Shown: piece by piece, positions 2,024 to 43,827 of the stretch
Position numbering within the stretch: the first letter of the stretch is position 1
How the letters are laid out: the number at the start of each line of letters is the position of its first letter
IMG/VR virus record: IMGVR_UViG_3300034777_000284
Location: 1-44,054 of that record
DNA length: 44,054 nucleotides
DNA from: a virus
Lineage: Duplodnaviria > Caudoviricetes
Direction: 5' to 3' (one strand)
Position numbers and translations under genes: made by a program
Notes under the pieces: generated by a model
The model's input: the letters and a program-made list of their open reading frames with translations, nothing else
Databases searched by the model: none
Told to the model about the DNA's origin: nothing

Positions 2024-2042
2024 ATATTACTCGCGCTAATAT
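2024..2042 (-). promoter_or_regulatory. Promoter-operator cassette 1 (xis-like gene)
   Basis: ATATTAC-TCGCG-CTAATAT; minus strand TTGACG-N17-TAATAT. Confidence 0.75.
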
Positions 2043-2098
2043 CTGCCGTCAAATCTATCCGGATTTTTGTCCACTTTTGATATGTTGTAACGTTTGCG

Positions 2099-2647
2099 TT
2101 AGTTGATACGCGAGGCGGCAGAGTAAACTGAGATAATTGCCAGCTTTGTTTTGATCTTGTTTTTAGGCGGGAGTTGGTTGTGCGGATAAATCCATCCGGA
2201 TTTTTGTCCTTTTTTGACAACTATAAAATGGTTCGCGTGTGTAGATTCATCAGCTTCGCACACTTCGAATACTGCTCCTGGCCATTGATCATCGTCGACT
2301 AGGTGTTCGACATAGAAAGTATTTGGGACTTTCTTGTAGTGAACTTTGTTATTTATCTTTTTGGACATGTCGCTCAAATTATGGCGTACCGTGATCGTTT
2401 TTGTGTTTGGCAAATGCTCAGTGATGTTTGGATCAATTTCATGCGGGTCGACTTCCATGAAATTAGCAAGCTTTATGATGGCTGCTGCGTTCATTTCGGT
2501 GATGTTGTTCAGGTACTGAGAAATCGCACCTTGTGTCCACCCAAGTTTTTTTGCCGCTTCGATCTGTGTGTATTGCGGCTTAATTTTTTTGTTCCAAAGC
2601 TTGCGTAAATTAGTCACGCTGTTTGGTACTTGAGTGTTTTTGGTCAT
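2099..2647 (-). CDS. XRE/CI-like HTH repressor candidate
   Basis: YTQIEAAKKLGWTQGAISQYLN HTH; no obvious S24 catalytic Ser-Met motif in the C-terminal half; start moved to ATG 2647. Confidence 0.75.
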   Translation of the reverse strand: MTKNTQVPNSVTNLRKLWNKKIKPQYTQIEAAKKLGWTQGAISQYLNNITEMNAAAIIKLANFMEVDPHEIDPNITEHLPNTKTITVRHNLSDMSKKINNKVHYKKVPNTFYVEHLVDDDQWPGAVFEVCEADESTHANHFIVVKKGQKSGWIYPHNQLPPKNKIKTKLAIISVYSAASRIN

Positions 2648-3041
2648 GGCCTGGTCCCTGGCAAACGGTGGAATAAATCCACGGAGCGACATCCTGTCGC
2701 GGTATGTTTTGTTCTACATACTCAGACTTGCATATATTAGTAGAGAAGTCATCCGTTAATATTAGTGCTGTGTCTCCAACACCTAATATTAGTGCTACCG
2801 AAGTACTCACTTTTATGCGCTCTAACCAAGCACATTGGAGCGCGGACAACGAGTGTCGAATCACGGTTTCGTCTTTCTTCGGCAATGCTTTGACATATTT
2901 GTATTCGACGAACAACAGCCCTGCTGATCCTGCATACATAGCGTCGGGCACGCCTCCCGTGTAGGTGTCGTGGATCTTCCACTTATACACATCAGGGTGA
3001 AGAGCGTTATGTATAGACCTAACAAAACTGTGTTCGTTCAT
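2610..3041 (-). CDS. VRR-NUC/Holliday-resolvase-like PD-(D/E)XK nuclease
   Basis: MNE...GGVPD...FVEYK...LSALQCAW motifs. Confidence 0.7.
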   Translation of the reverse strand: MNEHSFVRSIHNALHPDVYKWKIHDTYTGGVPDAMYAGSAGLLFVEYKYVKALPKKDETVIRHSLSALQCAWLERIKVSTSVALILGVGDTALILTDDFSTNICKSEYVEQNIPRQDVAPWIYSTVCQGPGHDQKHSSTKQRD

Positions 3042-3135
3042 AAATTCGGTGATCCGTTGTGGCAACAAGTGGATCAGGCTTGCGGATAAACTGCCGCGTG
3101 GCACGGATAACCGCGCGGCAGCCCTGCCGTAGACG

Positions 3136-3825
3136 TTACTGCGCGTACTGCTTGTACAAATCTTCAGCAACTTTGTAGTCGGCTTCCTGAGCCCAACCGA
3201 TGAACGTGACTTCGCAATTCATAAATGCTTTGCCCATCTTGTTCTCGGTAGGTACGCCAGACACTTTCCACAGGCCAGCGAAACGGTCACCGCCCTTCAT
3301 GCCAATCTGCGAGTTCCATGCTTTGGATACGCGCAGCTTGGAGCTAGCGAAGTCCATGATGGCTGGTGAGCGTTCTAGCTCTCCGGTCACAGGATCTTTG
3401 ATCAGGATGACGTGTGCATGTGTTTCGTTGATGTCGTACTCATCAGGCTTATCCTGAGCAGACACGTATGCGTCAGCTTCTGCTTGCGATGTGTACGCAC
3501 CACCGTAACCGCCGCCAGCTTCTAGCTTGCGCCAGACAACGAACTCGGTTCTGAAGTGCAAGCTAATGCAGTACAGATCATTACCGTAGTTGTGGTTGGT
3601 CAAGGTGTTGACCAAGTGGCCTGGCTCGCAGCCCTCGACGTATGATTGATGGTGCTTGTCGACCTCATTGGACATCTTTTGCAGAAGTTTGACCCGAGGG
3701 ATCTGTACATTCTGCCCGACGTTCTCGTTGCCACGGCCTACGCCTTCGACAGCTTTGAGGTGGGCAGGAAGTTCGTCGGTTGATGCGACAAGGTTTGATG
3801 TTGCAACTGCTACTGATTTACTCAT
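3136..3825 (-). CDS. Putative ssDNA-binding/replication protein
   Basis: IPRVKLLQKMS motif typical of phage replication modules; lies between helicase and nuclease genes. Confidence 0.45.
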   Translation of the reverse strand: MSKSVAVATSNLVASTDELPAHLKAVEGVGRGNENVGQNVQIPRVKLLQKMSNEVDKHHQSYVEGCEPGHLVNTLTNHNYGNDLYCISLHFRTEFVVWRKLEAGGGYGGAYTSQAEADAYVSAQDKPDEYDINETHAHVILIKDPVTGELERSPAIMDFASSKLRVSKAWNSQIGMKGGDRFAGLWKVSGVPTENKMGKAFMNCEVTFIGWAQEADYKVAEDLYKQYAQ

Positions 3826-3849
3826 AGAAATACTCTTCTTTATTCGTGT

Positions 3850-4215
3850 TTAAAGGGATCGAAAGTTAATGCGTCGTATGTCGCGAGGAACTACGCCTGG
3901 GACTTCCTGCCCTAGCTTCCACATTTCTTTGCAAGCCGTAGAACTCGCACGACGTTGAAGGTAGCTGTAGTCCTCGGTTGCTGAGCAATGCGCGTACAGC
4001 GCGTCCCAGTTAATAACCTCGGGTACAGTGTCTTCGTTTATGGAAACGCTGGCTTTGCCGTTCGCGGTGCGCGACAAACCCTGCTCATCCATTCTGTTGA
4101 AGAGTTGGTGATCAAGGTCGTCCTTGGTCTTACCCAACTCCTTTAGCTCAGCGTTGAGACGAGCCATCTCGTCTTTGACGCCAGCGTATTTGTTAATTAG
4201 TTCATCAATTGTCAT
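3850..4215 (-). CDS. Phage hypothetical protein with N-terminal coiled coil
   Basis: Co-oriented ORF in the replication operon. Confidence 0.6.
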   Translation of the reverse strand: MTIDELINKYAGVKDEMARLNAELKELGKTKDDLDHQLFNRMDEQGLSRTANGKASVSINEDTVPEVINWDALYAHCSATEDYSYLQRRASSTACKEMWKLGQEVPGVVPRDIRRINFRSL

Positions 4216-4232
4216 AAGGTTTTCTCTTCGTT

Positions 4233-5582
4233 TTAGGCTGCAGGTTTAAGGTTGTTTAGAATTCCTAGTAGCTCGTCCATGCGGTCGACTTTGCCTTGGA
4301 GCTTTTCGTACACGTCGGTCTCCCAGGTATCGCGTGCTGCAATCTGGATGACTTCGGTCTTCTCAGTTTGGCCAGCACGGTAGATGCGGCGATTGAACTG
4401 CTGGTAGTGCTCGGCGTTGTACGTGGGCGATGCCCAGATGATTGTTTTAGCCTTTGTCATGGTCAGACCATGACCCGCTGATTGGGGGTGGCAGAACACA
4501 ACTTGCAGCTGACCAGCTTGCAGTCGGTCTACAATTTCTTTTCGCTTGGGGGCAGCTGTACTGCCATCGATCGTGGCGTGTGCGAGGCCAAGCTTGTCTG
4601 CAAGCTCAGCCATATAGCGTTGTTCATGCTTCCAATTGAATGCGACAAGTGTCTGCGCGCGCTCGGAGACCAGCTGCATGACAAGGTCGTAGCGTTCTTT
4701 GTGAATTCGTTGGGTGTCACCGTGTTCGTCGTAGACAGCGCCGGTGCATAACTGCAGTAGCTTTTTGACTTTGCTGCCTGCATGTATGGCGTTGATTGTC
4801 GCAGCACCCGTGTACAACACTGAGTCCTCACTCAATGTTCGGTACTGCTGCATGATCTTTTTAGGCAGCGTTACGAACATCGTTTGAATACTTTGCTCAG
4901 GCATGTCGATGCATTCGGTAAGCTCGTATCGGATGTTGATGTCACTGAGCGCAGCAGCCACCACTTCTTCTGCGTTCTCTTTCTGTACCCACTCGTTGGC
5001 GAAGCCGTTGAAGCGCGGTGTGCAAACTGATGAGCGGAAGCTGTAAAAGCGATGACCTAACCGCTGGCCGTCGTCGACGATAAGTGTTGGGTGCCAGACA
5101 TCGAGTATGCCGTTGCTGTTTGGTGTACCGGACATAGCGATGCGGTGATCAAATGCCTGTGCAATCTTGTAACAGGCTTTGCTGCGCTGGCTGTCTTTGT
5201 TTTTGAACGCGGTGAACTCGTCGATGACTAACGTGTCGAAGTTCTCAAGAACGTGGGCATTCTTTGCGATCCACTTAACTGCATCGTGGTTAGTAATGAC
5301 TACCCGTGCGTCGCTTTTGAATGCCGCTTCTCGGTTTTTAGCGTACGCAATTGCGTACGTAAGCTCTGGCTGGAACTTGTCAATGTCATCGCCCCACGAC
5401 GCTTCGAGGATGGACAGCGGTGCGAGAACCAAGGTACGCGATTCGCGGCCCACGATTGCATCGAGCACAGAGCGAGTCTTGCCCGTGCCTGGGTCAGAGG
5501 TGATCAAACAACGTGGTTGCTGTTTAATAAAGTCAGTTGTGACTTTTTGATGTTCGAATGGTTCGTACATAGCATCACTCAT
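4233..5582 (-). CDS. SNF2-family (SF2) helicase
   Basis: DPGTGKT, VIDE, SGTP, GHGLTM, QFNRRIYRAGQ motifs. Confidence 0.9.
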   Translation of the reverse strand: MSDAMYEPFEHQKVTTDFIKQQPRCLITSDPGTGKTRSVLDAIVGRESRTLVLAPLSILEASWGDDIDKFQPELTYAIAYAKNREAAFKSDARVVITNHDAVKWIAKNAHVLENFDTLVIDEFTAFKNKDSQRSKACYKIAQAFDHRIAMSGTPNSNGILDVWHPTLIVDDGQRLGHRFYSFRSSVCTPRFNGFANEWVQKENAEEVVAAALSDINIRYELTECIDMPEQSIQTMFVTLPKKIMQQYRTLSEDSVLYTGAATINAIHAGSKVKKLLQLCTGAVYDEHGDTQRIHKERYDLVMQLVSERAQTLVAFNWKHEQRYMAELADKLGLAHATIDGSTAAPKRKEIVDRLQAGQLQVVFCHPQSAGHGLTMTKAKTIIWASPTYNAEHYQQFNRRIYRAGQTEKTEVIQIAARDTWETDVYEKLQGKVDRMDELLGILNNLKPAA

Positions 5583-5601
5583 TATTTGTGGAACGGTTAG
5601 C

Positions 5602-5784
5602 TCAGTTCTCTTCTACAGTTCCATCAAAGTCCTTTGCTGCGTCCCAGCCGATGTCTTCTTGTAATAAATGTTTGGCTTGGTAGTAGGCTTCGTCTTCACC
5701 TTCGTCAGATACAATGACGTACTCATACTCAAGCGTTCCAATAGGTACGAAAGTAACGCGGTAAGTTTTTGGTGTTTTATTCAT
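5602..5784 (-). CDS. Small acidic hypothetical protein
   Basis: GGAG precedes ATG 5784; first gene after cassette 2. Confidence 0.55.
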   Translation of the reverse strand: MNKTPKTYRVTFVPIGTLEYEYVIVSDEGEDEAYYQAKHLLQEDIGWDAAKDFDGTVEEN

Positions 5785-5810
5785 CGTTTGCTCCATGATG
5801 ATGGTTCAGA

Positions 5811-5829
5811 ATATTAGCAGTACTAATAT
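5811..5829 (-). promoter_or_regulatory. Promoter-operator cassette 2
   Basis: ATATTAG-CAGTA-CTAATAT; minus strand TTGAGC-N17-TAATAT plus extended -10 TG. Confidence 0.8.
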
Positions 5830-6515
5830 TAGTGCTCAAGAAAAACTACTGGGTCTGAGGAAGACCAGCAGTAGCCGCATGTGGTGCAGCTGGCGGTAGC
5901 ACCTGTTTGCTCTGGGCAGACGATCCCGCCGCCAGTATTCACGGTTGCCCTGAAAGGAGTATCCATGTCATCAGAAAACCGGATAGCTGCTCTGTCGGGG
6001 TAGCTGTTATTTAAGCTAGCGTTGATGTATTTGCCTAGACCCCACGCGCTTTTGTGGTGGGTATAACCAAAGACTTTTAGATCTGGCAGCAGGTCTAACA
6101 TGACGTGCCAGAACTCGACGTATTGATCAGAGAAGAAATCGCCAAGGACATGTAGGCGCACGACGACGCCTTGTTTTTTCTTTCGGTGTTTGTGTACGAG
6201 GCGAACCAATTGCGTGCCAAGTTGCTCAAGAAACATTGGGTCTGTGTGATCAAACCGATGCGCAAAGGGCATGTTGTTACCGTAGCAGTTGTCCCACTGG
6301 TCACAGTCAGATGGGCACGTCTTGCGTTCTTCTAGTGTAAGACTGTACATGACGTGGTCTTTCCACTTTTTGACCGTGACTATGTCACCAAGTTTTGCGT
6401 TTTGTTTGCCGCGTTTTAGCATTCGCAGGCTTGGCGGCTTTACGCCTTTTTTGTACCTCGTTCGCGGCGGGTGCAGATTTTTTGCTGGGATTAGGTTCTC
6501 GGCTAAGGATGTCAT
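5829..6515 (-). CDS. GP88-like Cys-rich protein (possible Fe-S/radical-SAM-related)
   Basis: TCPSDCDQWDNCY, RLHVLGDF, FGYTH, CPEQ...CTTCGYCW; AGGAG RBS. Confidence 0.65.
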   Translation of the reverse strand: MTSLAENLIPAKNLHPPRTRYKKGVKPPSLRMLKRGKQNAKLGDIVTVKKWKDHVMYSLTLEERKTCPSDCDQWDNCYGNNMPFAHRFDHTDPMFLEQLGTQLVRLVHKHRKKKQGVVVRLHVLGDFFSDQYVEFWHVMLDLLPDLKVFGYTHHKSAWGLGKYINASLNNSYPDRAAIRFSDDMDTPFRATVNTGGGIVCPEQTGATASCTTCGYCWSSSDPVVFLEH

Positions 6516-6681
6516 CGAGTATCTCCTGTCTATATTCAGCGGCTGTTGCCCGATCGCATTTCGTCATGATCTTGATCTCGGACTTCTTTAAACGATGCGT
6601 CGTCCAGATCTCTGCTTCCGATGGGTCGGTAACAAGTTTGTATTGGATGAGCTTGCCTTCTCGTTTGTAGTACATGTTCAC
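6385..6681 (-). CDS. Hypothetical protein
   Basis: Start coupled to the upstream stop; overlaps the next gene by about 130 bp. Confidence 0.5.
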   Translation of the reverse strand: MNMYYKREGKLIQYKLVTDPSEAEIWTTHRLKKSEIKIMTKCDRATAAEYRQEILDDILSREPNPSKKSAPAANEVQKRRKAAKPANAKTRQTKRKTW

Positions 6682-6968: not shown

Positions 6969-7040
6969 AGGTTACTCCGATTATGGCTGCGATGAGGAAA
7001 AGGATTTCGTAGACGCTGAAAAGCGAGAATATGGCTTGGA

Positions 7041-8128: not shown

Positions 8129-8147
8129 ATATTAGCATAACTAATAC
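8129..8147 (-). promoter_or_regulatory. Promoter-operator cassette 3
   Basis: ATATTAG-CATAA-CTAATAC; minus strand extended -10 TGcTAATAT. Confidence 0.75.
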
Positions 8148-10670: not shown

Positions 10671-10689
10671 ATATTAGCATGGCTAATAT
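10671..10689 (-). promoter_or_regulatory. Promoter-operator cassette 4
   Basis: ATATTAG-CATGG-CTAATAT; minus strand TGcTAATAT. Confidence 0.8.
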
Positions 10690-10692: not shown

Positions 10693-10887
10693 TTAAGTAG
10701 GATTCGCGTCTTTTTCAAATACTTCCTGTCGGTCGATCCTGACCGATTCGTCTGCTTCAAACGTCAGACGAACTTGATTCCTGTCAACTTTGGAGATTTT
10801 TACTCTCGCGAGGACGCCGTCATCGCTGTGGATGACTACTGTTTCTTGGATTTTTCTCGTTAATACCAAACGTGGCATATGGCTCAC
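10693..10887 (-). CDS. csrA: CsrA/RsmA-family RNA-binding protein
   Basis: LVLTRK..ETVVI...NQVRL...VRIDRQEV aligns by eye with CsrA MLILTRR...NQVRI...VSVHREEI, with the Arg44 equivalent retained. Confidence 0.8.
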   Translation of the reverse strand: MSHMPRLVLTRKIQETVVIHSDDGVLARVKISKVDRNQVRLTFEADESVRIDRQEVFEKDANPT

Positions 10888-12701
10888 TTGCTGTAACTAA
10901 CGTCATAACCGCCTTCGGCATCCAAGGGGATGTCTGGTGCCCATGCTGGCGGGGTACACATGTGCTGTATTAGCTTCTGCATTGTAGCATCAGGGTTATT
11001 AGCGTCACTAATTATTATGATCTCGTCATGCACGGTTAGCACGATGTCAGCGTCCAGCGTTGGGTCGTTTTTGATGCGCAGCATTGCATCCGTAACAACG
11101 ATACGGGATAGCGCTTGCACGACGTTCTCGGTTATTCGCCCTCCCCAAGTAGTTTCGGGCGCGAGCCCCCTACCTTTGTAGGTAAGTTTGCCGTTCCATA
11201 TGTGCAGGTCGTTGTAATGTAGGGCCATCCCATTGGGCAGATGGATCTTTTTGTCTTTGAATCGTAGGCCGTGCCAGTCTTCTTCGTGGCTTGCCTGCAA
11301 CGTCTGCGTCAATTTGAGTTCGAGTTTCTGCCAAAGCAGCGGTATACCGAAGTATGTATTGCGATACGTCGCTACAACACCGAGTGCCTGGTCGTTGGTG
11401 AACGTCATTGGTGGTCCCATTGCACCAGTCTCCAAAGTGGACTGGAATTTTGCTGCGCCCATCCCGTAACCCAGCCCAAGTACAGCGGTCTTTCCGACAA
11501 AGCGCTCTGTTGGGTCATTGTTTTTATTGATTGGTCGGTCATAGATGATGCTGGCGAGGTTGCTGTAGATGTCATCCCCTGCTGCAAACTGATCGAGTAG
11601 ATCTTGCTGGTCGGCCAGCCATGCGAGCATACGGGCTTCGATGTTCGACAAGTCAGCAACAAACACAAGTTTCCCTGGTGGGGCGCACAACGCTTTGCGC
11701 ATCGGTGAGTTGCGGGGCATGTTCTGCATGTTGATCTTTTCGGTGCCGCCGAAGCGGCCGGTGTGCGCTGCGTAGTATCGCAACGGAACTGAGAGCGTGC
11801 CGTCTTTGTTGGTAGCGTCAATGAAGCGCTGAGCCCTGGTCTCGTTGATGCGACTCTTTGCAGCTTTGCGTGCATCCCAAATCAGCTGGTGCTCTGGATA
11901 CATACCTTGCAGCTGGGTGAACGCTTTGTCGTTCTTACCAAGAGCGGGTATGAATTTACCAGTTGTAGGGCTGCGTTTGGTTGGTGGAACAAGGTGTAGC
12001 TCGTTCTCGATGTATGCAGCGAATTGTTGATTAGAGCTAAGAACTTTTCGTTCGACGCCGCTTTTTTCAATTGCTGTCTTACTGGCAGTGATTTCTGAGT
12101 CGCGGAACTTGATTAGTGCTTCGTGGTCCACGACAAACTTCGGCTCGCAGAACATGCGGCAAGTGATGTCGATTAGGTCCATCTCTGACGTAGGCATATC
12201 TACAACCCACTGGTCATAGATCGCGCGAGTCAGATCGACGTCTTGAATACAGTATCCTGCAATGGATGCTTCGAGGTCAGGATCAAGGTCGTAGATGCCC
12301 TTTGCGTCTGCAAGCTCGTCGCCTTTACGCATGGTGTCGTCTGTTGGGAATGCGCGTATTGCGCAATCTTTCAAACGTGCGCTTTGGCCGGGGAAAAGGC
12401 CGCGACTCATTGCTGCAGTGTCGACGTAGTATTTGGGGGTTAGTCCGTAATATTGCGTAAGGATGTACGCGTCGAAAAGCGTGTTATGGCATAAGAGCCA
12501 TACGTTGTCCCAGTCTAGGGCACGTAGTGCGTCTTCGCACTCATCTTCTCCGTACCATTCTGTAGCATCATGATTGATCTTGATGCCTACACCCCACACC
12601 TTGAAGCGATCGTCTTGGACGTACTCCATCGTCGTCATCTTGGTCAGGGAAAAAGATTTATCGTAAAACGTTTCGAAATCAAGTGTTACGAGGTGATTCA
12701 A
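10884..12701 (-). CDS. polA: Family A DNA polymerase with 3'-5' exonuclease
   Basis: LDFET, HNTLFD, YCIQD exonuclease motifs; HTGR, NMQN, DLSNIEAR, RFVGKTAVLGLGYG, VHDE. Confidence 0.95.
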   Translation of the reverse strand: MNHLVTLDFETFYDKSFSLTKMTTMEYVQDDRFKVWGVGIKINHDATEWYGEDECEDALRALDWDNVWLLCHNTLFDAYILTQYYGLTPKYYVDTAAMSRGLFPGQSARLKDCAIRAFPTDDTMRKGDELADAKGIYDLDPDLEASIAGYCIQDVDLTRAIYDQWVVDMPTSEMDLIDITCRMFCEPKFVVDHEALIKFRDSEITASKTAIEKSGVERKVLSSNQQFAAYIENELHLVPPTKRSPTTGKFIPALGKNDKAFTQLQGMYPEHQLIWDARKAAKSRINETRAQRFIDATNKDGTLSVPLRYYAAHTGRFGGTEKINMQNMPRNSPMRKALCAPPGKLVFVADLSNIEARMLAWLADQQDLLDQFAAGDDIYSNLASIIYDRPINKNNDPTERFVGKTAVLGLGYGMGAAKFQSTLETGAMGPPMTFTNDQALGVVATYRNTYFGIPLLWQKLELKLTQTLQASHEEDWHGLRFKDKKIHLPNGMALHYNDLHIWNGKLTYKGRGLAPETTWGGRITENVVQALSRIVVTDAMLRIKNDPTLDADIVLTVHDEIIIISDANNPDATMQKLIQHMCTPPAWAPDIPLDAEGGYDVSYSK

Positions 12702-13615: not shown

Positions 13616-13634
13616 ATATTACTGTTACTAATAT
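13616..13634 (-). promoter_or_regulatory. Promoter-operator cassette 5
   Basis: ATATTAC-TGTTA-CTAATAT; minus strand TTGAGT-N17-TAATAT. Confidence 0.75.
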
Positions 13635-13640
13635 TAGCAC

Positions 13641-14768
13641 TCAAGATAAATACGCCGCTTGTTTCATTTCTTCCATTTGGATTCGGCAGACGCTGCCCCA
13701 CGGGGCATCGCGGTCTGTTGTCGATACCCATAGGACTGGGTAGTTTGGCTCTTCGCCAAAATCGTCGCTGCACAAGTCGGTTAAGTAGACCGCTGCATCA
13801 ACGTCGTGATGCTCGTTGAGGTACTCAAACGCTGGGGCGAACGATGTGCCACCACCACCTTTGATTGGTGTCATAGGGAACGCTTCGTCAGGCTCGACCT
13901 CATCGACATGCGCTACTTTTGTATCCACATGTAGAATGGTGAGCTTGGATGGCTGTAGCTCGGTATGAACTGCAGCAACCTCACTGATGAATTGTTGCCA
14001 GTAAGTCCGGCACGACCCAGAGGCGTCGATAATGAATGCTAGATGGCCAGCACCTTCCGAGTACAACGACGGAAGATATTCATCTTCACTGATGTACGCG
14101 CGGTTAGGTTTGCGCCAGCTGTAGTCGTTATTGACGACTTCTGTGCAGAAAGGCCACATGACAGATCGCCAGTCGACGATTGGCTTGACGATATCTTTGA
14201 TAAAAGTCTCAAGGTGAGCTGGTAGCTTGCCTGCTGCTTTTGCAACTTGCGCCGCTTGTGTCACTGCGACTTGCCACTCTGATTCAAGTGATGCGTTTGA
14301 ACCCGCATCGATCTGAACCTGAGAAGAATCAGCATCGAGGACGATACCCCATGCACATTGCTTGACGCCTTCGTCTTTGATCTTGTTGTAGATCGCCTCG
14401 GCACTCATGTCATCGTACTGCGAGTCGATGAGCCCCCCTTCAGGGAGTATGAACCCTGATTGAACTAAGTGACTGTTGATCGCGAAGTCACATGCTGCGT
14501 TCCATATCTTATGATCGCGTTCTTGTCGTCGCGTCATATGATTGAACACACAGTGCATGACTTCGTGTGCGATGAGTCCTTTGCGAGTCAAAGGGTCGAG
14601 CTTGCCGATGAACTTGCTGTTGTAGACAAGCTGCTTACCGTCGGTAGCAGCTGTGTCACAGCCGTCATCGTCTTGCACTAGCTTAAGCCGTAACGCCAGC
14701 GTGCCGAAGAACGGATGTTCCATCAGCATCTGGGCTCGGGCTTTTACCATGTCAGCTTCTGCGGACAT
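13641..14768 (-). CDS. Metallopeptidase-like plus vWA domain protein (DUF2201-like)
   Basis: TAATDG, AHEVMH (HExxH), DASGS MIDAS, GGGGTSF, YLTD. Confidence 0.85.
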   Translation of the reverse strand: MSAEADMVKARAQMLMEHPFFGTLALRLKLVQDDDGCDTAATDGKQLVYNSKFIGKLDPLTRKGLIAHEVMHCVFNHMTRRQERDHKIWNAACDFAINSHLVQSGFILPEGGLIDSQYDDMSAEAIYNKIKDEGVKQCAWGIVLDADSSQVQIDAGSNASLESEWQVAVTQAAQVAKAAGKLPAHLETFIKDIVKPIVDWRSVMWPFCTEVVNNDYSWRKPNRAYISEDEYLPSLYSEGAGHLAFIIDASGSCRTYWQQFISEVAAVHTELQPSKLTILHVDTKVAHVDEVEPDEAFPMTPIKGGGGTSFAPAFEYLNEHHDVDAAVYLTDLCSDDFGEEPNYPVLWVSTTDRDAPWGSVCRIQMEEMKQAAYLS

Positions 14769-14769
14769 A

Positions 14770-15486
14770 TTAGCCTCCTAAGAGTTTTGCCGTTAGCACG
14801 GCTTGGTTTGCAACAGTCGGATCGAAAGAGATTTCTTCTTTGATCGTCTGCGCGCGTTGTGCGCGAGTTACCTTGCGGTGTAGCTCTTGCAGTTTGCTTT
14901 GAGGAACAAGCGTTTCAGCGCCAGGCCAAACCTGCAGCAACTGCTTGAGTGTTGTGCATTTGCGTACCAGATCTTTGATCTGCTTTTGGTACTGGTTTTT
15001 TGCTTCTTCATGCGCTTTCTCCGAGTCTTTGAACTTGGTGAACATATCAATGAGATCTGATTTGTCTTCATCACGGAAGTCGTTGATATAAACGGCCGCG
15101 TCGTTGTATGAGTAATAACCTTCATCGCGCAACTTGTAGTAATGCATCGGTGTCGCCAAAGTGATGTTGCAATCAGGGTCGTTACCGGTCCGGCCGTTGC
15201 TTACTACGTTCGTAAGCGATCTGAGTTTTACCCTTATGTTTGCAACGTCGTCTCGTTTAGGCGAACAATTTATGCCGTACAGGTACTCGCTGGTTAGCTC
15301 CTGATCTCTTGCATCTTCCGATACTTTGGCAAGGAACTTCTGCACAGGCGAGTTTTCGATCGCGTTGCGCACAGCTTCTACAAACTCGTTGCTTGGCTTG
15401 GGTTGGGGATTAGCGGTGTCGTACGCGTCGCGCGCGGCTCGATATATGTCGTCGCCAAGTTGAATTGTCATTCTTACTGAGGCCAT
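14770..15486 (-). CDS. Nmad5-like protein
   Basis: C-terminal TTLKQLLQVWPGAETLVP signature. Confidence 0.55.
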   Translation of the reverse strand: MASVRMTIQLGDDIYRAARDAYDTANPQPKPSNEFVEAVRNAIENSPVQKFLAKVSEDARDQELTSEYLYGINCSPKRDDVANIRVKLRSLTNVVSNGRTGNDPDCNITLATPMHYYKLRDEGYYSYNDAAVYINDFRDEDKSDLIDMFTKFKDSEKAHEEAKNQYQKQIKDLVRKCTTLKQLLQVWPGAETLVPQSKLQELHRKVTRAQRAQTIKEEISFDPTVANQAVLTAKLLGG

Positions 15487-15495
15487 AAGTTTCTC

Positions 15496-16494
15496 CTAAA
15501 GTAGTACGTCTGCGTTTTTCACAGACCAGTCAGTGAAGGTTTGGGATTGGATTAAGGTGCGATCTTTTGCAAGGGCGTCCTTCATAACCAACACGCCATA
15601 CTCTGTTGGCAGCCGGTTTGCGTATTTGACGATCGATGCAAAGTTTTCTTTGGTGACACGAACGGTCAGCGCACCAATAACAGCGAAGATTACCGAGGTG
15701 CTGGTCGGTACTTTCGCAGTAGTTGGATTAGCAATGACATCGTCGATGTCGGGTAGATCTTGGTAGATCGATTTGAATGCAGCGAATTCGCCTGCAGCCG
15801 CGTCGCCTACCAGGGATGCAACGCCGTAAAACTCATCAGCCATGAATGGCAGCTTACGGTTGACGTATGCCCATGCGCGCGGCGTTGGGAATGCGTTTTG
15901 TGTTGCGTCGACTTGTGACAACAGCTGCGGACGGAAACGCAAGAAGCTGATTAGCGTCTCGTCAATGTTGTTGTTTACGGCCCACGCAATCCAGTCATCG
16001 ATGTTTGATTCGAGGACGAAGTGCGAGAAGCGGTTTTTGACAGGTGTTGGCATCTCATGCACAGCGGCTCGGTCAGTGGATCGGTTACCAGCAGCAATGA
16101 AGGTGGTGTTTGGCGGGCAGGTGTATGTACCAATCTTGCCAGTGGTGAGCAGCTGCAGAAGCGAGTTCTGAGTTGCTTTGGGAGCCGTTGTAAGCTCGTC
16201 GATTAGGATGGTAACAGCGCCTTGGTAGTTGCTGTCTGGGTAATCCTCGGGCACACCATACCGAGTTCGGTACGTGCCATCTTCTTGCTCGACAACTTTT
16301 AAGCCACCGCGTACGTCGACTGGGTCGAACAAGTTGGCGCGGATCTCAAACAGCTTTGAGTTCAAGTCTTCTGCAACTTGGTATGCGATTTCAGACTTAC
16401 CCTCGCCAGGTGCGCCGTGCATCATGCTTGGGATTCGGGCCAAGGCGTTGGCCTTGAGTTCTTCTTTGAGGGCGGAAGGACGGATCGTTCTCAT
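15496..16494 (-). CDS. MoxR-like AAA+ ATPase
   Basis: GAPGEGKS, ILIDE, AAGN, NRF, TPRAW. Confidence 0.88.
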   Translation of the reverse strand: MRTIRPSALKEELKANALARIPSMMHGAPGEGKSEIAYQVAEDLNSKLFEIRANLFDPVDVRGGLKVVEQEDGTYRTRYGVPEDYPDSNYQGAVTILIDELTTAPKATQNSLLQLLTTGKIGTYTCPPNTTFIAAGNRSTDRAAVHEMPTPVKNRFSHFVLESNIDDWIAWAVNNNIDETLISFLRFRPQLLSQVDATQNAFPTPRAWAYVNRKLPFMADEFYGVASLVGDAAAGEFAAFKSIYQDLPDIDDVIANPTTAKVPTSTSVIFAVIGALTVRVTKENFASIVKYANRLPTEYGVLVMKDALAKDRTLIQSQTFTDWSVKNADVLL

Positions 16495-16733: not shown

Positions 16734-16929
16734 CTCCTTCTAGTGCGGTGATGTATGGGTCGAGGGACGACTTGAGTGTGTTGAACAGCCAGTCGTCCTT
16801 CGCGATTTGCGCATCGCGGTCCGCGTCTGGGTCTCCCTCAGCCACAGGTGCGAATACGCCTTCACCGTCTAACCAGTCCGAGTAATCGGAGTAAGGGTCG
16901 TCGGTGTTTCGGCAGGGCATTCGACTCAT
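16705..16929 (-). CDS. Acidic hypothetical protein
   Basis: Co-oriented; AGGAG RBS. Confidence 0.55.
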   Translation of the reverse strand: MSRMPCRNTDDPYSDYSDWLDGEGVFAPVAEGDPDADRDAQIAKDDWLFNTLKSSLDPYITALEGDANAKRNVE

Positions 16930-17408
16930 GCAGGTCTCCTAAATGGATCATGTCGGAAATCACGAACCGCTTTGTCTGAGTTGATGAACTGCTTCATTAG
17001 ATGTTCAAGCACGGCTTTTTGGCGTTCTGTGACGCGGCAATCCATCAGCTGCGTGATTAAGTTGATGTCGAGAAGCTCGCGCGGTTCAGGCGGTTTCACG
17101 TTTATGGTTTTGCCGTCAAGCCAATCGTCGACTGTTTGCGGTTTTGGGAATGCAGCACGAGGAGCTGGTTGGGGCGGTGCTGCTTTTTCTTTGCGGGGGC
17201 GCTGTTTGTTGATGATGGTACCGGCGGGTACAGACAACAGTTCTGCAACTTCATCTGCATATTTCTTACTTACGCCACGGAAACACCATTGGCTTACGCT
17301 AGTGGCGTGGACACCTAGCATGTTCGCCATCTCGGTCTGGGTGATGCCGTTGGCTTTGAGCGCGGCTCGGGTGTTGTGCCCTTTTGCACATTGGATCGGT
17401 TTGCTCAT
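16926..17408 (-). CDS. Cro/XRE-type HTH protein
   Basis: GITQTEMANMLGVHATSVSQW HTH; AAAGGA RBS. Confidence 0.75.
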   Translation of the reverse strand: MSKPIQCAKGHNTRAALKANGITQTEMANMLGVHATSVSQWCFRGVSKKYADEVAELLSVPAGTIINKQRPRKEKAAPPQPAPRAAFPKPQTVDDWLDGKTINVKPPEPRELLDINLITQLMDCRVTERQKAVLEHLMKQFINSDKAVRDFRHDPFRRPA

Positions 17409-17434: not shown

Positions 17435-17692
17435 TTAGAGGCTGCGATTTACGGTGTTGTAGACCGAGTAGTACGAGATGCTCAGCTGTGCGGCGATCTC
17501 GCGGTATCCGAATCCTTTGTTTCGGAGGTTGCGTATCGCGTCTTTTTCTTCTTGTGTTAGCGGTGCGCGTCTCGGCCTACGAGTGCCCCATCCGTCGTAC
17601 GCGGTTCGAAAGCTTTTACCGCGTTCGCGTACAATTTCTTGGGCTTGGATCGCTGCGAGGAACTTCTTGGTCAAGGTGCTACACCTTCTCAT
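17435..17692 (-). CDS. Small HTH protein
   Basis: LTQEEKDAIRNLRNKGFGYREIAAQLSISYYSVYN; start uncertain. Confidence 0.6.
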   Translation of the reverse strand: MRRCSTLTKKFLAAIQAQEIVRERGKSFRTAYDGWGTRRPRRAPLTQEEKDAIRNLRNKGFGYREIAAQLSISYYSVYNTVNRSL

Positions 17693-19587: not shown

Positions 19588-19776
19588 TCAAGAGGCGCTG
19601 GGCTTTGGATTCCAAAAACCGATGTCCTCGCTGAAATGCGACTCAGCAAATATATTAGCATCACTAATATCGTCAGCCAAGTTTAAGACGTCGACGGACT
19701 GAGGCCGTGCCTCCGCGTGATCGATTACGGAATCTAGTAGAGACCAACGCTCTACGTTGAGATTAAGTTCCTTCAT
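19588..19776 (-). CDS. Hypothetical protein
   Basis: AGGAG RBS before ATG 19776. Confidence 0.5.
   Translation of the reverse strand: MKELNLNVERWSLLDSVIDHAEARPQSVDVLNLADDISDANIFAESHFSEDIGFWNPKPSAS
19652..19670 (-). promoter_or_regulatory. Promoter-operator cassette 6 (intragenic)
   Basis: ATATTAG-CATCA-CTAATAT; minus strand TTGGCT-N17-TAATAT plus extended -10 TG. Confidence 0.8.
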
Positions 19777-22622: not shown

Positions 22623-22641
22623 TTAATAGTGATGCTAATAT
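22623..22641 (+). promoter_or_regulatory. Promoter-operator cassette 7
   Basis: TTAATAG-TGATG-CTAATAT; plus strand extended -10 TGcTAATAT. Confidence 0.7.
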
Positions 22642-23121: not shown

Positions 23122-23140
23122 ATATTAGTGACGCTAATAT
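23122..23140 (+). promoter_or_regulatory. Promoter-operator cassette 8 (packaging operon)
   Basis: ATATTAG-TGACG-CTAATAT; TTGTGA-N17-TAATAT. Confidence 0.8.
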
Positions 23141-29464: not shown

Positions 29465-29483
29465 ATATTAGTATCGCTAATAT
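29465..29483 (+). promoter_or_regulatory. Promoter-operator cassette 9 (capsid promoter)
   Basis: ATATTAG-TATCG-CTAATAT; TTGCAT-N17-TAATAT. Confidence 0.8.
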
Positions 29484-29494: not shown

Positions 29495-29675
29495 TCGTCC
29501 ATCAGAGCGATATCTGATCGGCCCGTAGCCGTAAAAAACGTAACCATCGCCTGCACAAGGCGTAAAACCTGCCGAGGTCGCTCTCGTTAAAACGCGCTAG
29601 TTCGTCGTCCCACGACACGGGAACACGGATTAGCCGCTCCAGTAAGTCGGCTAAACGAGCAGCTTTATTAGCTGC
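29495..29675 (+). ncRNA. Structured 5' leader of the capsid gene (tandem putative pseudoknots)
   Basis: Six consecutive hairpins whose loops are complementary to nearby 3' segments, then a 6-bp hairpin. Confidence 0.55.
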
Positions 29676-29707
29676 GCTATTAATACGACAATTTTATGGA
29701 GGCCATC

Positions 29708-36977: not shown

Positions 36978-39900
36978 TGGCTGATCCTGTAGAGTCGCTA
37001 TTGAAGTTCGACTACTCAGAGCCGGATCGCGACTATGACGTAACCGCGCGCACGGGAACCACGCCCGATGGCCTAGGGGAAACGTTTGCCCGAGGTTTTG
37101 ACGTCGGCCTTGAAAACATCCAGACGGACAACGACTACTTCAAAGGTCTGTTCAATACTGTAATTGGGGACGAAGAAGCAGCAGCTGAAAATATTGCAGC
37201 TGCTCGTGCCCGCGAACAACGTACCTCCACGTCGTTCGGAGAGTTACAGGACTTCGAAGGGTTTGTTGAGAACCCAACTGTCGGCGGCTTCTTTACGCAG
37301 ATATCTAAGAACCTCGGTCAAATTTCGCCTTATGTAGGCGCGACGCTCAGCAGCGGCCTCGCTGGAGCCGCAGTCTCGGGCCTTACCAAACTCGGCGTCA
37401 GCGCGGGAAGCCGTCACGTAACAAAGCGCCTAGTGCGAGATGCTTTTGAGAAGAAGCTCAAGGGCGAAGCAACTCCTGAAGAGGAACGCATACTCGCTGT
37501 CTCTTACCGACTTGCGCAGCGCAATAACGCCGCCGACAAGATAACCCTAAAAGGCGGTGCTGCCGCTGGCATGTACGGCCAAGAGTACAGCAGCATGGCT
37601 GGCTCAAACTTTGGCGAGAACCTCGGCTTCTTAGACGATGAGGAAGCAGCGCTCAGGTCGGCGGGGTTGGCCGTGCCGCAAGCGTTTATTGGCCTCAAGG
37701 GCGAGCAGCTTCTGACAAGAATGCTGATGAAAGATCTCGGTGACCTCGCAGCAAAGCGGTCAACGAGAGAGGGCTCCTCGTTTGCGAAGCTCGCCAAAAA
37801 TCTAGCGAGGGGCGGTGCTACAGAAAGCGTAGCCGAAACTTTGCAAGAAGGTATTAGTGTTGCTAATCGATTCGACATTGATCCTGAATACACTACGCAA
37901 GACGCTGCCCTTCGAATGGGCGAATCTGCTTTTGCTGGTTTCTTCGGCGGCCTTGGTATCTCAGCAGCCGGAAGCGGCACAGTGGGTACTCTTCGCGGCG
38001 CTCAGAACGTCATGGGCAAAGCCAAGGGCTACATCGAGCAGGCCCGACAGCAGCAGGTCGATGCAGAGATTGATAACGAGCAGTACGGCGTGGACTCAAT
38101 GGGGTTCACGACACCGGAACCACAAAGCTCAGTTAACGCACAAGTCAGAGCAGCCGTAGACCCTACTACCGCGCGGCACTCCATTTGGGTCGAAGGGCCA
38201 AACCCTGAGTACGACGCGTCCGAGACAGAAACAAAAGAAGTCGAGATCGAGGCTGGCGTTAGTGAGGACGGGAACGTCACCTACCAAAAGTTCTATACGC
38301 GCTTCGTACCTGGTCGCGGCACGATCATCTCTAAGAACTTTGACATAGTCGAAGAAGTCGCTGAGTCACAGGCCAGTGATGAGTCACTTGCTGCGGCACT
38401 ACAATACAGCGACGTTAAGCCGATAGATGGCGACATTGTTGTAGAAGCACTAGACCGCGAAGGCAACGTAGTCTGGCAGCAAGGTACAAACGAAGACGGA
38501 TTGGCTGGTGCGTTTAGCGCAGCTGGTTCTCAGGTTCCTGCTGGTGGGTCAGTAAGACGTCGCTCGGTTAAAGAAGCGCTCGAAGAACGGCAAACGCTGT
38601 TCAACCAAGAACAAGGCCCGCAAGTAAGGAACATTGATACGGAAAGCTTTGAAGATGGCTTCTCCGATATCGATAACGAGCTAAAGGTCGATCAAGAACT
38701 TGGCTTTGAAATTGACGAATTTGGCATCGGCAGTACCGAGCTTGGCGATGCGAAAGAAATAAACATTGGTAATGAGGAAACTTATAAGCCTCGCTCCGAC
38801 GGCAATAGAATCTTCGATTCGACCAACGAAGCACGCAGCGAGTTCGCAGCAGCGTTCGAAGATGTAGATCTATCGGACTTAGGAAAGGATGAGTTCACAG
38901 GGGTCTCTTTCGCAGAAGGCAGCAAGTTTGCGCGGATGTCGGATGCTTTCTTGCGGCAAGCCGCGAAAGCAAAGCGGGAAAACCCAGGTACAGACATCTT
39001 CGTCATCGAGAATGAGGACGGTAGTCACTCACTCATGCAGACGGTCAGCCCTGAAGCTGAGTTATTTGGGTTTGATTCCCGCACTGACACCCTTCTCGAT
39101 CCTGCAGTTGAAGCAGAGATAGACGCTGAGGCTGCGCGTGCTGAAGCAACGGAAGCAGAGCTTGATGTCGAAGAAGCCGTCAATCAGATTAAAGACACAA
39201 CGGAGCTACAACCTGGGCTCGACTTATTCGACCAGCAGCCAAGAGAAGCCCCACCAGCTAGCCCTGTTGAGCCAGACCCTGCGCAGCGTGGTGAAGACGC
39301 CCCACGAGTTATTGGTGGAGTGGCGACAGCAGCACAGTTTATTCGCAACGCAATTAAAAAGGCGAAAGAAAGCCGGTTCGCGCGTCAGCGCCGCACAAAG
39401 AAAGGCTGGGTAAACAAGAAGCCAGAGGAACTCGTCACCGTAGATGGAGTCGCTGTAAACCTTGTCGATCTAGTCAAAGACGGACAGCGTCTTTTTTCAA
39501 TCGAACAGCGCGGCGAGTTTACGCAAGGCGGTCGAGTAACAGCGATGCGCAACGGTTTGTTTCAGATAATCGGTTCGCTGATTGCTGAAGGCAAAGTGGT
39601 GAAGATTGGCGGATATGACATTCGCTCCAAGCTTCTCAAAGATCTGCAAGACATATCGACCCAGATCGCTCAAGAAGAGCAAGCAGTGGCAGACGCGGCG
39701 TTGGAGTGGGACTTAGATCCTGACAGCCCAGACTTGAATGCCCGCCTAGCTGAAGTCCAGCAGTACTTATCTGAGGTTGAAGGCAGAGTCGCTACGGGTC
39801 GTCGTGCTGACAGAGAGGCCCGAAGAAATTCTCCACTGGACAGACTAAAAATCCAGCGCGCGAAATGGGCACGCGACTACGCCGAGTATCAAAAGCTTAC

Positions 39901-42900: not shown

Positions 42901-43069
42901 TCCCATAACGATTGCTCAGCAGGCAATGCAGGCAGCTGATTGGGGGCGCGGCGTTACAGGCGCGGCCGCAGTTGTGGCAGGCCCAACCGCTGAAACCGTG
43001 CAGCGTATCTTCACCGATGGTTTTTCCAGCACGTTTGAAAATCGAATGTTACCAACAGGGCTTCTGTAA
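36977..43069 (+). CDS. Large ejection/polyvalent protein with zincin-like motif (2030 aa)
   Basis: ESVAETLQE and Gly-rich hydrophobic segments; AHELGH...FEEWYAD; C-terminal hydrophobic helices. Confidence 0.75.
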   Translation: MADPVESLLKFDYSEPDRDYDVTARTGTTPDGLGETFARGFDVGLENIQTDNDYFKGLFNTVIGDEEAAAENIAAARAREQRTSTSFGELQDFEGFVENPTVGGFFTQISKNLGQISPYVGATLSSGLAGAAVSGLTKLGVSAGSRHVTKRLVRDAFEKKLKGEATPEEERILAVSYRLAQRNNAADKITLKGGAAAGMYGQEYSSMAGSNFGENLGFLDDEEAALRSAGLAVPQAFIGLKGEQLLTRMLMKDLGDLAAKRSTREGSSFAKLAKNLARGGATESVAETLQEGISVANRFDIDPEYTTQDAALRMGESAFAGFFGGLGISAAGSGTVGTLRGAQNVMGKAKGYIEQARQQQVDAEIDNEQYGVDSMGFTTPEPQSSVNAQVRAAVDPTTARHSIWVEGPNPEYDASETETKEVEIEAGVSEDGNVTYQKFYTRFVPGRGTIISKNFDIVEEVAESQASDESLAAALQYSDVKPIDGDIVVEALDREGNVVWQQGTNEDGLAGAFSAAGSQVPAGGSVRRRSVKEALEERQTLFNQEQGPQVRNIDTESFEDGFSDIDNELKVDQELGFEIDEFGIGSTELGDAKEINIGNEETYKPRSDGNRIFDSTNEARSEFAAAFEDVDLSDLGKDEFTGVSFAEGSKFARMSDAFLRQAAKAKRENPGTDIFVIENEDGSHSLMQTVSPEAELFGFDSRTDTLLDPAVEAEIDAEAARAEATEAELDVEEAVNQIKDTTELQPGLDLFDQQPREAPPASPVEPDPAQRGEDAPRVIGGVATAAQFIRNAIKKAKESRFARQRRTKKGWVNKKPEELVTVDGVAVNLVDLVKDGQRLFSIEQRGEFTQGGRVTAMRNGLFQIIGSLIAEGKVVKIGGYDIRSKLLKDLQDISTQIAQEEQAVADAALEWDLDPDSPDLNARLAEVQQYLSEVEGRVATGRRADREARRNSPLDRLKIQRAKWARDYAEYQKLTEQGVTGLTEPVKPPLLALMDVQAGMEDGRPITVGKLLNKTPENTPSKDAIYTLTNEDGFVVFEGNKQQVQEEIESSNRPYIISKNGKRLTDEEFAQERNVGFNDRPTNFRPDEPVADTPSEDLRPIGFSEQTTDADADYAFDPEAENLGDLKPLGVKAGTIAERVVNIARRTLNLDKPTSVLSVRELLRMDNFEDAFSDPRVAAYVKDVAEQLVADPQGGGRYIGFGDAHIILVDESAGKNDLDTAMIVAHELGHALFKEQLSSTLKNPALYNRLFDEFQKSRDAANAPAAYKGKHGFEEWYADQTANWAIAEYAKDRKKGLVGAHFQKVARKLKQFYNAFSADMKKRFGRDAASPEFRGYMDEVIRRRSEGSTASGAQTASMQEKVIVRKMAEVIEKQQPGFVGAINKKVQQLIRSDGFTPVYNFIFTADSRLRKVAGDKVADLFYGRSQQAKGKGRNKLGFIKTSMLEGNRWFNKLEDAIDGDLDSPEVQADIDLAFSDTPTRDLTNKNAIAVRKWFDQFYDEYIEPSQADIGRQTDYAPVVLKLSEIEKNPDVLIKLILESDPKAKPADIKFAVQKLVNYQQAVMDGSPIDIKETNPAQSAEAAIKLTKAVGKDKLKDAGLLEDTDVALMTYITKTVKRVEWKRNTEDAFGNSIYEEELRKLSGKEQAEVQKIVHKYLGYQESPLSPMWRTINSWGSVLQIFAILPLAVLGSIPELAGPVIASKEFASVTEGMKEVVKTVRNRDEARALARDIGVVTSQSVANIMMSQAELDFMSEGARKLTDGFFRVTLLDTYTKFTREFASNMGVRFIMKHADIDGNANAFSKKYLDELGVSAADVQAWSRSDQNFNTPEGQRVRMALQRFVESSTLRPNAAERPLWASDPHWALFWQLKGFFYSYGKVMLAGARREAASRLDGASASDASKYAALTGAAGVFALMGIATMPLAMVGMELREYAKFGLAYAIPGIDHDAKDYFRTDNLSWPEYLGAAFDRSFAAGPITIAQQAMQAADWGRGVTGAAAVVAGPTAETVQRIFTDGFSSTFENRMLPTGLL

Positions 43070-43446
43070 TGAGTTTAGTAGGACAGCTAATAGGGCCAGT
43101 GAGTGGCCTGCTCGACAAATTTATCGAGGATAAAGATCAAAAGAATGCCTTGGCGCACGAGATTGCGACCATGTCGGAAAAGCACGGGCAGCAGATTGCG
43201 CTCGAACAAATCGAGGTTTTGAAACTCGACGCTAAGGGCAACTGGTTCCAATCCAGCTGGCGGCCTTTAGCTGGTTACACATGCGTGCTTGGGCTAATGG
43301 TGAATTTCCTGATTTCCCCTATTGCGGCTGGGTTTGGCTTAGTCATCCCACAGGCTGATGCAGGCGTAATGATGCCCTTGCTTCTTGGAATGCTGGGCTT
43401 GGGTGGGGCTAGGAGTTTTGAGCGCGTGAAAGGCGTAGGAAAGTAA
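43069..43446 (+). CDS. Holin (GTA-type 3TM family)
   Basis: LLDKFIEDKD, WFQSSWRP, LLGMLGLGGARSFER. Confidence 0.85.
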   Translation: MSLVGQLIGPVSGLLDKFIEDKDQKNALAHEIATMSEKHGQQIALEQIEVLKLDAKGNWFQSSWRPLAGYTCVLGLMVNFLISPIAAGFGLVIPQADAGVMMPLLLGMLGLGGARSFERVKGVGK

Positions 43447-43797
43447 ATGAGCGAATACATGTACTTCAAGATTGAGGACTTTGATTGCCAAGAAACTGGC
43501 GAAAACGAAATGGATTCTGAGTTCATAAAGAAGTTAGACGAACTTCGAGAAGCCTGCGGTTGGCCGTTTATCGTGACCAGCGGGTATCGGTCGCCTAATC
43601 ACAGTATCGAGCAGAAAAAAACGCGCCCCGGTCAACACACCAAAGGTAACGCAGCAGATATCAAGGTGTCTGGTGGCGCGCAGCGGTTGGACATAGTGAA
43701 GAAGGCTTGCTACCTCGGATTTTCTGGGATCGGTGTGGCTAAAGGCTTCGTCCACGTCGACACGAGAACCACGACTCCAGTTATGTGGTGCTATTAA
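43447..43797 (+). CDS. Endolysin, peptidase M15
   Basis: TSGYRS, H..G.AADI, FVHVD. Confidence 0.9.
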   Translation: MSEYMYFKIEDFDCQETGENEMDSEFIKKLDELREACGWPFIVTSGYRSPNHSIEQKKTRPGQHTKGNAADIKVSGGAQRLDIVKKACYLGFSGIGVAKGFVHVDTRTTTPVMWCY

Positions 43798-43808
43798 TTT
43801 GTGGTAAG

Positions 43809-43827
43809 TTATTAGCATCGCTAATAT
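43809..43827 (+). promoter_or_regulatory. Promoter-operator cassette 10 (tail genes)
   Basis: TTATTAG-CATCG-CTAATAT; TTGTGG-N17-TAATAT. Confidence 0.78.

Follow-up and report, generated by a model that had tools for sequence, protein, structure and literature searches.

A palindrome over early and late promoters of an uncultured marine podophage family as the probable operator of a lambda CI-like repressor

Introduction

The virus record IMGVR_UViG_3300034777_000284, hereafter the window (the whole analysed stretch of 44,054 bases, which is 75% complete and without end repeats), raises the question of why one 19-bp palindrome, ATATTAGY-N3-RCTAATAT, stands before early and late genes alike, and which protein it serves. 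An earlier note, made from the sequence alone, had proposed that the palindrome is operator and promoter at once, and that one dimeric regulator acts through it on the early and late promoters which the host polymerase reads. In this study, the palindrome was compared across the relatives of the phage, and the proposal finds support in the joint loss of palindrome and repressor gene, in the joint change of palindrome and recognition helix, and in promoters which survive the decay of the palindrome. From these sequence comparisons, we consider it probable (about 0.78) that the palindrome, lying over the -10 element of about a dozen early and late promoters, is the operator of the phage's own lambda CI-like repressor, which would silence the prophage.

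Results

The palindrome and its promoters

With up to three mismatches allowed, 13 sites were detected in the window against a shuffle mean of 0.19 (shuffle maximum 2), and a position weight matrix (PWM) scan returned 14 sites where 0.02 were expected. The ten main and two weaker copies reported previously were all found at their positions, with one more added by the scan at 37851, and the gene-facing hexamer TAATAT is intact in all ten main copies. The seven TTG hexamers described 17 bp upstream also read as reported. The extended -10 claimed for the sites at 8129, 10671 and 22623 holds only in part: the TG is present at all three, but it also occurs at 5811 and 19652 and is partly inherent in the motif, and it is therefore weak evidence.

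A sigma70 scan of positions 1-39400 misses most of these promoters, only the 2024 site scoring 9/12, so they are to be seen as moderate promoters whose reality rests on comparison. For this comparison, 198 sites from 18 repressor-bearing records were oriented by gene direction, 162 of them lying outside long open reading frames (ORFs) and 36 inside. Of the 156 distinct intergenic sites, 61 have a TTG at exactly 17 bp upstream of the gene-facing hexamer in the sense direction, against 2 in the antisense direction, and no other offset counts more than 13 sites; the promoter geometry is thus conserved and directional. As a side observation, chance matches to the sigma70 consensus in positions 1-39400 are rarer than in shuffles (8 against 17.6, and 3 against 11.4), as if there were selection against unguarded promoters.

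The possibility that the motif is an abundant host box was examined in 301 genomes from the order of a Cellvibrionales metagenome-assembled genome (MAG) holding a small contig of the phage family, which is treated as the candidate host order. The palindrome (at most one mismatch) occurred in 49 of the 301, mostly as 1-3 copies in megabases of sequence; the highest count was 7 against 4 for the control, and the genome G323 had 5 against 6. No enrichment of the motif was thus seen in these genomes of a candidate host order.

The repressor protein

The candidate binder is a 182-aa protein encoded on the minus strand at 2099..2647, which combines a conserved helix-turn-helix (HTH) N-terminal domain with a divergent C-terminal domain of S24 fold; its assignment is drawn from homology, structure model, joint loss and joint change. 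Its six best sequence matches in the PDB are all N-terminal domains of lambda CI (E 3e-10), and its model, with a predicted local distance difference test score of 92.6, matches lambda CI and a lambda-186 hybrid, the N-terminal part being a five-helix HTH DNA-binding domain homologous to that of lambda CI. For the C-terminal domain folded alone, the ten best structural alignments were all to S24/S26 proteins, with a middling top Z of 6.1 (root-mean-square deviation 3.0, 74 aligned residues), namely lambda CI at 6.1, LexA at 5.7, and UmuD' and 186 CI at 4.8; Foldseek found no significant match for this C-terminal model alone. Among 35 C-terminal domains there was no invariant column, hence no conserved Ser-Lys catalytic pair or cleavage site, and the window protein had no S24 Pfam match. 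Induction by self-cleavage is therefore unlikely, and an antirepressor would be the more plausible trigger. Across 528 pairs, median identity was 63% in the N-terminal domain against 22% in the C-terminal domain, which is the reverse of the usual lambdoid pattern. It would be unusual for one operator specificity to be common to a large family while the C-terminal domain varies so strongly, as these sequences suggest.

The gene is co-oriented with the early operon as its last gene, flanked by a nuclease-like gene and xis, and forms no divergent cI/cro pair. Upstream of it, in the 3' end of the preceding gene, two half-sites stand 13 bp apart (2734..2762, minus strand, recognised by their spacing), with a third half-site at 2786. 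The 13-bp spacing, one helical turn wider than in the operator, recurs in 44 of 92 distinct repressor-upstream regions, the next commonest spacing reaching 21, and these half-sites may be the control region of the repressor itself. Shortened or HTH-only repressors of 72-138 aa, with no adjacent integrase and with operators kept, were noticed in G023, G059, L250, L254-L260 and L280.

Joint loss of palindrome and repressor

The repressor has 82 homologues; loci were collected from IMG/VR with an alignment as query, the single protein giving only marginal matches there. In 81 repressor-anchored loci, 224 palindromes (at most two mismatches) were counted against 0 for a reversed control, 76 of the loci being positive. 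The positions are syntenic, and the counterpart of the 2024 site lies about 580-690 bp past the start of the repressor match in many relatives. A whole-record search was positive in 35/35 records, a result that is not independent because these had been chosen by repressor or motif. An exact-match scan of IMG/VR gave at least 126 loci (about 600 estimated), of which the AT-rich ones look like chance and those of 42-51% GC often carry a TTG at the same spacing.

The tests of joint loss were made on relatives chosen by their helicase and capsid, without regard to repressor or motif, the family helicase being carried by about 480-500 IMG/VR stretches. Of 28 relatives examined whole, 19 have the repressor gene and 9 lack it, the integrase being missing from all 9 too; PWM sites number 5-19 per record in the 18 with a standard recognition helix and 0-3 in the 9 without repressor. 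On a quickly built tree of 114 distinct helicases (from 121, seven were excluded since their locus ends before the repressor position; site cut-off 12 bits), 84 of 92 repressor-bearing rows and 1 of 22 repressor-less rows have the helicase-promoter site. At least eight independent repressor-less lineages are found on this tree, and its eight independent supported pairs gave a mean of 6.8 concordant and 0 opposite (sign test, median p 0.016, range 0.008-0.06). A de novo palindrome search in the nine repressor-less records revealed no replacement motif of comparable strength.

The promoters themselves outlive the palindrome. A syntenic TTG-17-TAnnnT is kept in 7/7 repressor-less records at the terminase promoter and in 5/5 at the capsid promoter. 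At these two promoters, the upstream half-site matches at 2-5 of 8 bases in all 12 repressor-less cases, as against 6-8 of 8 in all 30 standard-helix cases and 5 in three variant cases. The helicase promoter, searched in a narrower stretch and found in 15 of 30 records, follows the same trend except in G573, G053 and one misplaced call in G059. Since the upstream half decays while the promoter stays, the -10 appears to be kept for transcription and the symmetry for the repressor.

Joint change of palindrome and recognition helix

Six of the eight repressor-bearing rows without a standard helicase-promoter site have an altered recognition helix. From the helicase promoters of these altered-helix phages, a variant palindrome, ATAGTACA-N3-TGTACTAT, was derived. 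G578, G579 and G070 hold 9, 4 and 7 copies of it, the window and G018 none; of the standard motif, the same three altered-helix phages hold 1, 0 and 0 copies. Base 4 of the half-site is mostly G with altered helices and mostly T otherwise. Separately, in L171/L245, L231 and L233, residues after the recognition helix are changed and base 4 is A instead of T, which may represent a second drift of specificity.

Three proteins had been put forward as possible binders. Of these, the repressor at 2099-2647 is upheld by joint loss and helix change, and the ORFs 16926-17408 and 17435-17692 were rejected, being present in just 2 and 0 of the 28 relatives; for the latter, one weak match was noticed, in the variant-helix phage G578.

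Observations that weigh against the repressor reading

Several results count against this interpretation. The PWM was trained on repressor-anchored loci, and a smaller first tree of 55 rows gave only four pairs (p 0.25). The variant-helix phages all belong to one clade, and their change of palindrome is therefore roughly one event. Two rows with a standard helix, L180 and L183, have no helicase-promoter site. The -35 hexamers of the terminase and helicase promoters share bases with the final codons of the gene upstream, and coding constraint thus contributes to their preservation. Sites are also present in some phages that lack the repressor gene: G573, 95% complete and with no repressor match at E 0.01, keeps four sites at up to two mismatches, and L249/G053 keeps a visible palindrome of 11.2 bits, just below the 12-bit cut. 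Both are tree sisters of repressor-bearing phages, and in G573 the neighbouring genes otherwise match, with nothing but the repressor and the int/xis pair missing between them; these residual sites fit a recent deletion of the repressor with slow decay. Integrase-less lineages retain repressor and sites, namely G023 (93% complete, a 138-aa protein, 7 sites) and G059 (an HTH-only protein of 85 aa, 5 sites within 31 kb), which leaves room for roles other than lysogeny. Lastly, no integrated prophage of the family was found in the 301, 201 and 79 sampled genomes.

The sites of the window

The sites of the minus-strand arm begin at 2024..2042, where motif and sigma70 scan agree on a putative operator and promoter before the excisionase gene (TTGACG-17-TAATAT). 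The site at 5811..5829 (TTGAGC-17-TAATAT) probably serves the operon running from helicase to repressor, judging by motif, TTG spacing and synteny in the helicase rows. One sequencing-run contig lacks 5583-5798, which holds a small ORF before the helicase (5602-5796), and another contig lacks 20 bp near 2055 (2055-2074), in a stretch resembling a repeat of the 3' end of the repressor gene.

The candidate operator at 8129..8147 (minus strand) precedes the exonuclease gene, and its extended -10 reading is probably wrong: TTGCCG-18-TATGCT fits better, with the -10 in the centre of the palindrome. In repressor-less relatives the central TATACT of the exonuclease promoter is kept, the terminal TAATAT being lost in several, and for this reason we take the operator to be centred on the -10. 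On the same strand, a motif match at 10671..10689 stands before the primase gene, and a weaker one at 10996..11014 lies in the 3' end of polA, 5' of a csrA-like gene; a similar site occurs in the polA end of G009, G051 and the repressor-less G053, so coding constraint may contribute to it. Two further minus-strand sites, predicted to be operator and promoter from motif and TTG spacing, are 13616..13634 (TTGAGT), before the genes leading to DNA polymerase A, and 19652..19670 (TTGGCT), in the early accessory region. Extra half-sites were noticed in the flanks 5829-5836 and 13634-13641; in L220, L226, L229, L235 and L247, the promoter before polA carries additional half-sites or tandem operators at a distance of 15-17 bp. 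These arrangements at the polA promoter suggest paired binding.

The motif at 22623..22641 lies where the two gene arms diverge, its TAATAT ending 9 nt before the ATG of the endonuclease gene. On the plus strand, 23122..23140 (TTGTGA) and 29465..29483 (TTGCAT) are the probable operators and promoters of the packaging and capsid operons, recognised by motif, TTG spacing and comparison of the terminase and capsid promoters, respectively. Three plus-strand motif matches remain. A weaker second site stands right before the capsid start (29665..29683); a weak site, absent from the earlier note, lies inside the gene of a 2030-aa virion protein with TTGCAA 17 bp upstream (37851..37869); and the putative operator and promoter at 43809..43827, past the lysis genes, faces the missing part of the genome, where complete relatives have tail-fibre genes.

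Gene content and lifestyle of the phage

Family scans of the 70 ORFs of the window placed at the left end an HNH gene and then, on the plus strand, a tyrosine integrase (791..1804; PHROG 1, PF00589). They are followed on the minus strand, up to 22.6 kb, by an excisionase-like HTH_17 ORF (1770..2015, PF12728; a weak operator-like site of 16 PWM bits lies inside it at 1916), the HTH_3 repressor, an SNF2 helicase, an exonuclease, a primase, a CsrA-like protein, DNA polymerase A, a vWA/AAA pair, two further HTH ORFs and small genes. The plus-strand arm encodes an endonuclease, terminase, P22-like portal, capsid, adaptors, the 2030-aa virion protein, holin and endolysin. Among relatives, a vWA/metallopeptidase, Nmad5-like and AAA ATPase trio (13641-16494) is present or missing as one unit. 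The CsrA-like RNA-binding protein (10693-10887, between polA and primase), which occurs in repressor-bearing and repressor-less relatives, may be a source of post-transcriptional timing.

No family of RNA polymerase, sigma factor or antiterminator was matched by the 70 ORFs, many small ones of which have no match at all, nor by the 61 scanned of 79 non-shared ORFs of two complete relatives; within this scope, the earlier statement that none is recognisable holds.

A candidate attP core, a 20-nt sequence copy of the 3' end of a tRNA-Ser gene, lies 5' of the integrase (712..731, plus strand), and 27 of 66 distinct integrase loci have a tRNA-Ser-type core 69-95 bp 5' of the integrase match. Since integrase and tRNA-Ser core are close together here and in relatives, the window very probably represents a temperate podophage. 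The cores in relatives match different tRNA-Ser isoacceptors. In contigs assembled from four sequencing runs on positions 48-6500, no attachment junction was seen. Among cultured phages, neither a DNA-level relative nor a repressor homologue was found, the closest matches being the capsid (51%) and terminase (41-49%) of KPP25-like and phiA008 phages. Four matches came from the order-level genomes: a 2.6-kb phage-like MAG contig (G077), a lone gene (G323), and weak HTH-only matches in G197, which has an endolysin match nearby, and G082.

A lone repressor copy in marine bacteria

The 2.69-Mb chromosome of G323 carries a full-length repressor homologue directly after pabB (G323:C1:1340200-1340769, L459), and within 140 kb around it no other match to 29 window proteins was found. 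The sister species G533 has a lone copy at the same place (G533:C33:124767-125354, L474), and within the genus 2 of 79 genomes carry it. Of 80 metagenome loci, 23 represent the lone copy (L604-L626), 85-99% identical and all adjoining pabB; 21 of the 23 keep a palindrome of 19.8-21.9 bits after the stop codon amid drifting flanks, and the other two loci end before its position. The ratio of nonsynonymous to synonymous substitution rates is 0.03-0.29 among 14 distinct lone copies. That a marine gammaproteobacterial lineage thus preserves copy and operator next to pabB, under purifying selection, is likewise unusual. Terminase and capsid, with the window proteins as queries, were not found in G323, G533 or G077, in searches that had no positive control.

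Upstream of the lone copy, a pair of half-sites with 13-bp spacing stands at the same offset as in the window, and the surrounding sequence resembles the matching stretch of the nearest phage relatives (45-49% protein identity). Two small conserved ORFs follow the operator (L459:2294-2479, 61 aa, acidic; L459:2835-3131, 98 aa), which were not found in any phage locus examined and may be regulated targets of the lone copy. Three tRNA-Ser genes of G323 match the attachment cores of nine family loci exactly, the window core being one base off one of them; tRNA-Ser ends are common, so this makes the lineage just a plausible host. The lone copy connects protein and motif without recourse to phage synteny. 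Having a recognition helix of the standard type, it is predicted to bind the operators of the family; it is a candidate domesticated immunity gene, perhaps protecting its lineage from the whole virus family, or it may do no more than regulate the small gene behind it.

Discussion

As proposed here, repressor dimers would bind the palindromes directly, sitting on spacer and -10 and blocking the host RNA polymerase at all promoters at once, with the excision, replication, packaging, capsid and tail operons silenced in parallel during lysogeny at a tRNA-Ser gene. We infer repression rather than activation because the palindrome overlaps the -10, and negative feedback because the repressor is the last gene of an operator-headed operon. 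A maintenance promoter would lie near the half-sites of 13-bp spacing, and induction would come through an antirepressor instead of self-cleavage. Lytic growth would then be a flat de-repression of host-polymerase promoters with no N/Q cascade. Its timing would depend on the strength of the promoters, the affinity of the operators, the copy number of the genome and possibly the CsrA-like protein.

The account that survives best beside the lysogeny repressor assigns the palindrome to the same protein, mainly as a Cro-like feedback damper in lytic growth, with lysogeny secondary: made at the end of the early operon, it would lower promoters according to operator affinity and be titrated by replicating genomes. 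The place of the gene at the end of the replication operon, the protein and operators kept by the integrase-less G023 and G059, and the want of a prophage in the sampled genomes all speak for it. Against these stand the eight or more independent lineages that manage without the protein, the nine repressor-less records that have lost the integrase as well, and the form of most copies, which are full two-domain CI proteins beside int/xis and the tRNA-Ser core. We therefore regard it as distinctly unlikely as the main role, though the two roles are not mutually exclusive.

That a host transcription factor or another phage protein, possibly an activator, binds the palindrome, and that the motif merely travels with the lysogeny module, is very improbable, even though G573 and G053 keep sites without the repressor gene. 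The motif is not enriched in the 301 gammaproteobacterial genomes sampled from the candidate host order; the palindrome changes along with the repressor helix; the two other HTH proteins are rare among relatives; and overlap with the -10 is, in general, the geometry of a repressor. That the symmetry is promoter architecture only (two -10 boxes back to back, or an AT-rich stretch that eases melting, and no bound protein) is hardly credible, for although each half holds a TAATAT and 22623 could fire both ways, the TTG asymmetry is one-directional, the upstream half decays on repressor loss while the promoter stays, and a variant palindrome of different bases follows the variant helix.

With reference to known systems, the repressor reading places the protein with lambda CI, with which it has N-terminal homology and a C-terminal S24-type fold in common; the inner 17 bp of the palindrome start with TAT-A, which we take to resemble the lambda half-site. 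Lambda has clustered OL/OR operators, Cro, N and Q, and RecA-stimulated self-cleavage, and 186 CI is non-cleavable. The window system departs from lambda in its scattered operators, in the lack of a conserved Ser/Lys pair and in having the DNA-binding domain as its conserved half. The earlier statement that this is not a lambda-type cI/cro switch is thus right about the wiring, no Cro/N/Q cascade being recognisable, but the protein itself is a lambda CI homologue in both domains; the difference from lambda is one of wiring, not of protein class. P1, for its part, has a late activator, Lpa, and in lytic derivatives among the cluster A mycobacteriophages, such as D29, sites outlast the loss of the repressor.

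Epsilon15 (Uetakevirus, Salmonella), likewise temperate and a podophage, also has an HTH_3 repressor, and its palindromic repressor sites extend to late genes. By the annotations of its record (NC_004775.2), it has seven such sites, three of them before late genes (terminase, head, tail-fibre), and its repressor annotation cites SPC32H Rep (PDB 5D50). Its sites differ from those of the window in sequence (0 PWM hits), three are clustered beside the repressor, and it replicates through an initiator protein, without a DNA polymerase of its own. For P1 C1, PMC8546580 describes one repressor with 22 dispersed operators of a 17-bp asymmetric site and the modulators Coi and Lxc; by comparison, the window site is symmetric and lies on the late promoters themselves. 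In cluster A mycobacteriophages (L5, Bxb1), PMC6550527 gives 20-30 asymmetric sites, mostly off promoters, which block elongation, and PMC9283540 presents the repressor as monomeric with two domains. The likeness lies in genome-wide repressor sites and in motif and repressor diverging together, and the difference from L5 stoperators in that the window sites are palindromic, mostly outside long ORFs (162 of 198) and at promoters. In SPbeta, according to PMC10516654, MrpR is a master repressor on a repeated intergenic element, SPBRE, across the prophage, as revealed by chromatin affinity purification sequencing (ChAP-seq). There the protein is a dead tyrosine-recombinase fold, the phage is a Bacillus siphophage and the element is 15 bp long, whereas the window is a podophage with a lambda CI-like protein and a 19-bp palindrome. 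The logic of one motif at many separate promoters is therefore already known from P1 C1, epsilon15 and SPbeta MrpR; the window system would work like these dispersed-operator regulons and, by sequence, belongs to none of them.

A bolder interpretation, which we hold tentatively and at rather less than even odds, is that the phage family is essentially one immunity group and that a bacterial lineage has domesticated its repressor as a standing defence, silencing the promoters of every incoming member. In literature searches, which did not include the motif string itself, no paper on the phage family or on a comparable host-captured repressor was found.

Our data define, by sequence alone, a complete repressor-operator-promoter set for a large uncultured marine phage family, which holds its own natural controls in at least eight independent losses of the repressor and one specificity variant, and the motif may serve as a marker to distinguish its temperate from its obligately lytic members. 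The lone copy makes testable the long-standing question of whether bacteria keep phage repressors as a defence without a prophage. If the domestication proposal is true, an arms race would account, on the phage side, for the repeated operator loss, the change to a variant operator and the hypervariability of the C-terminal domain.

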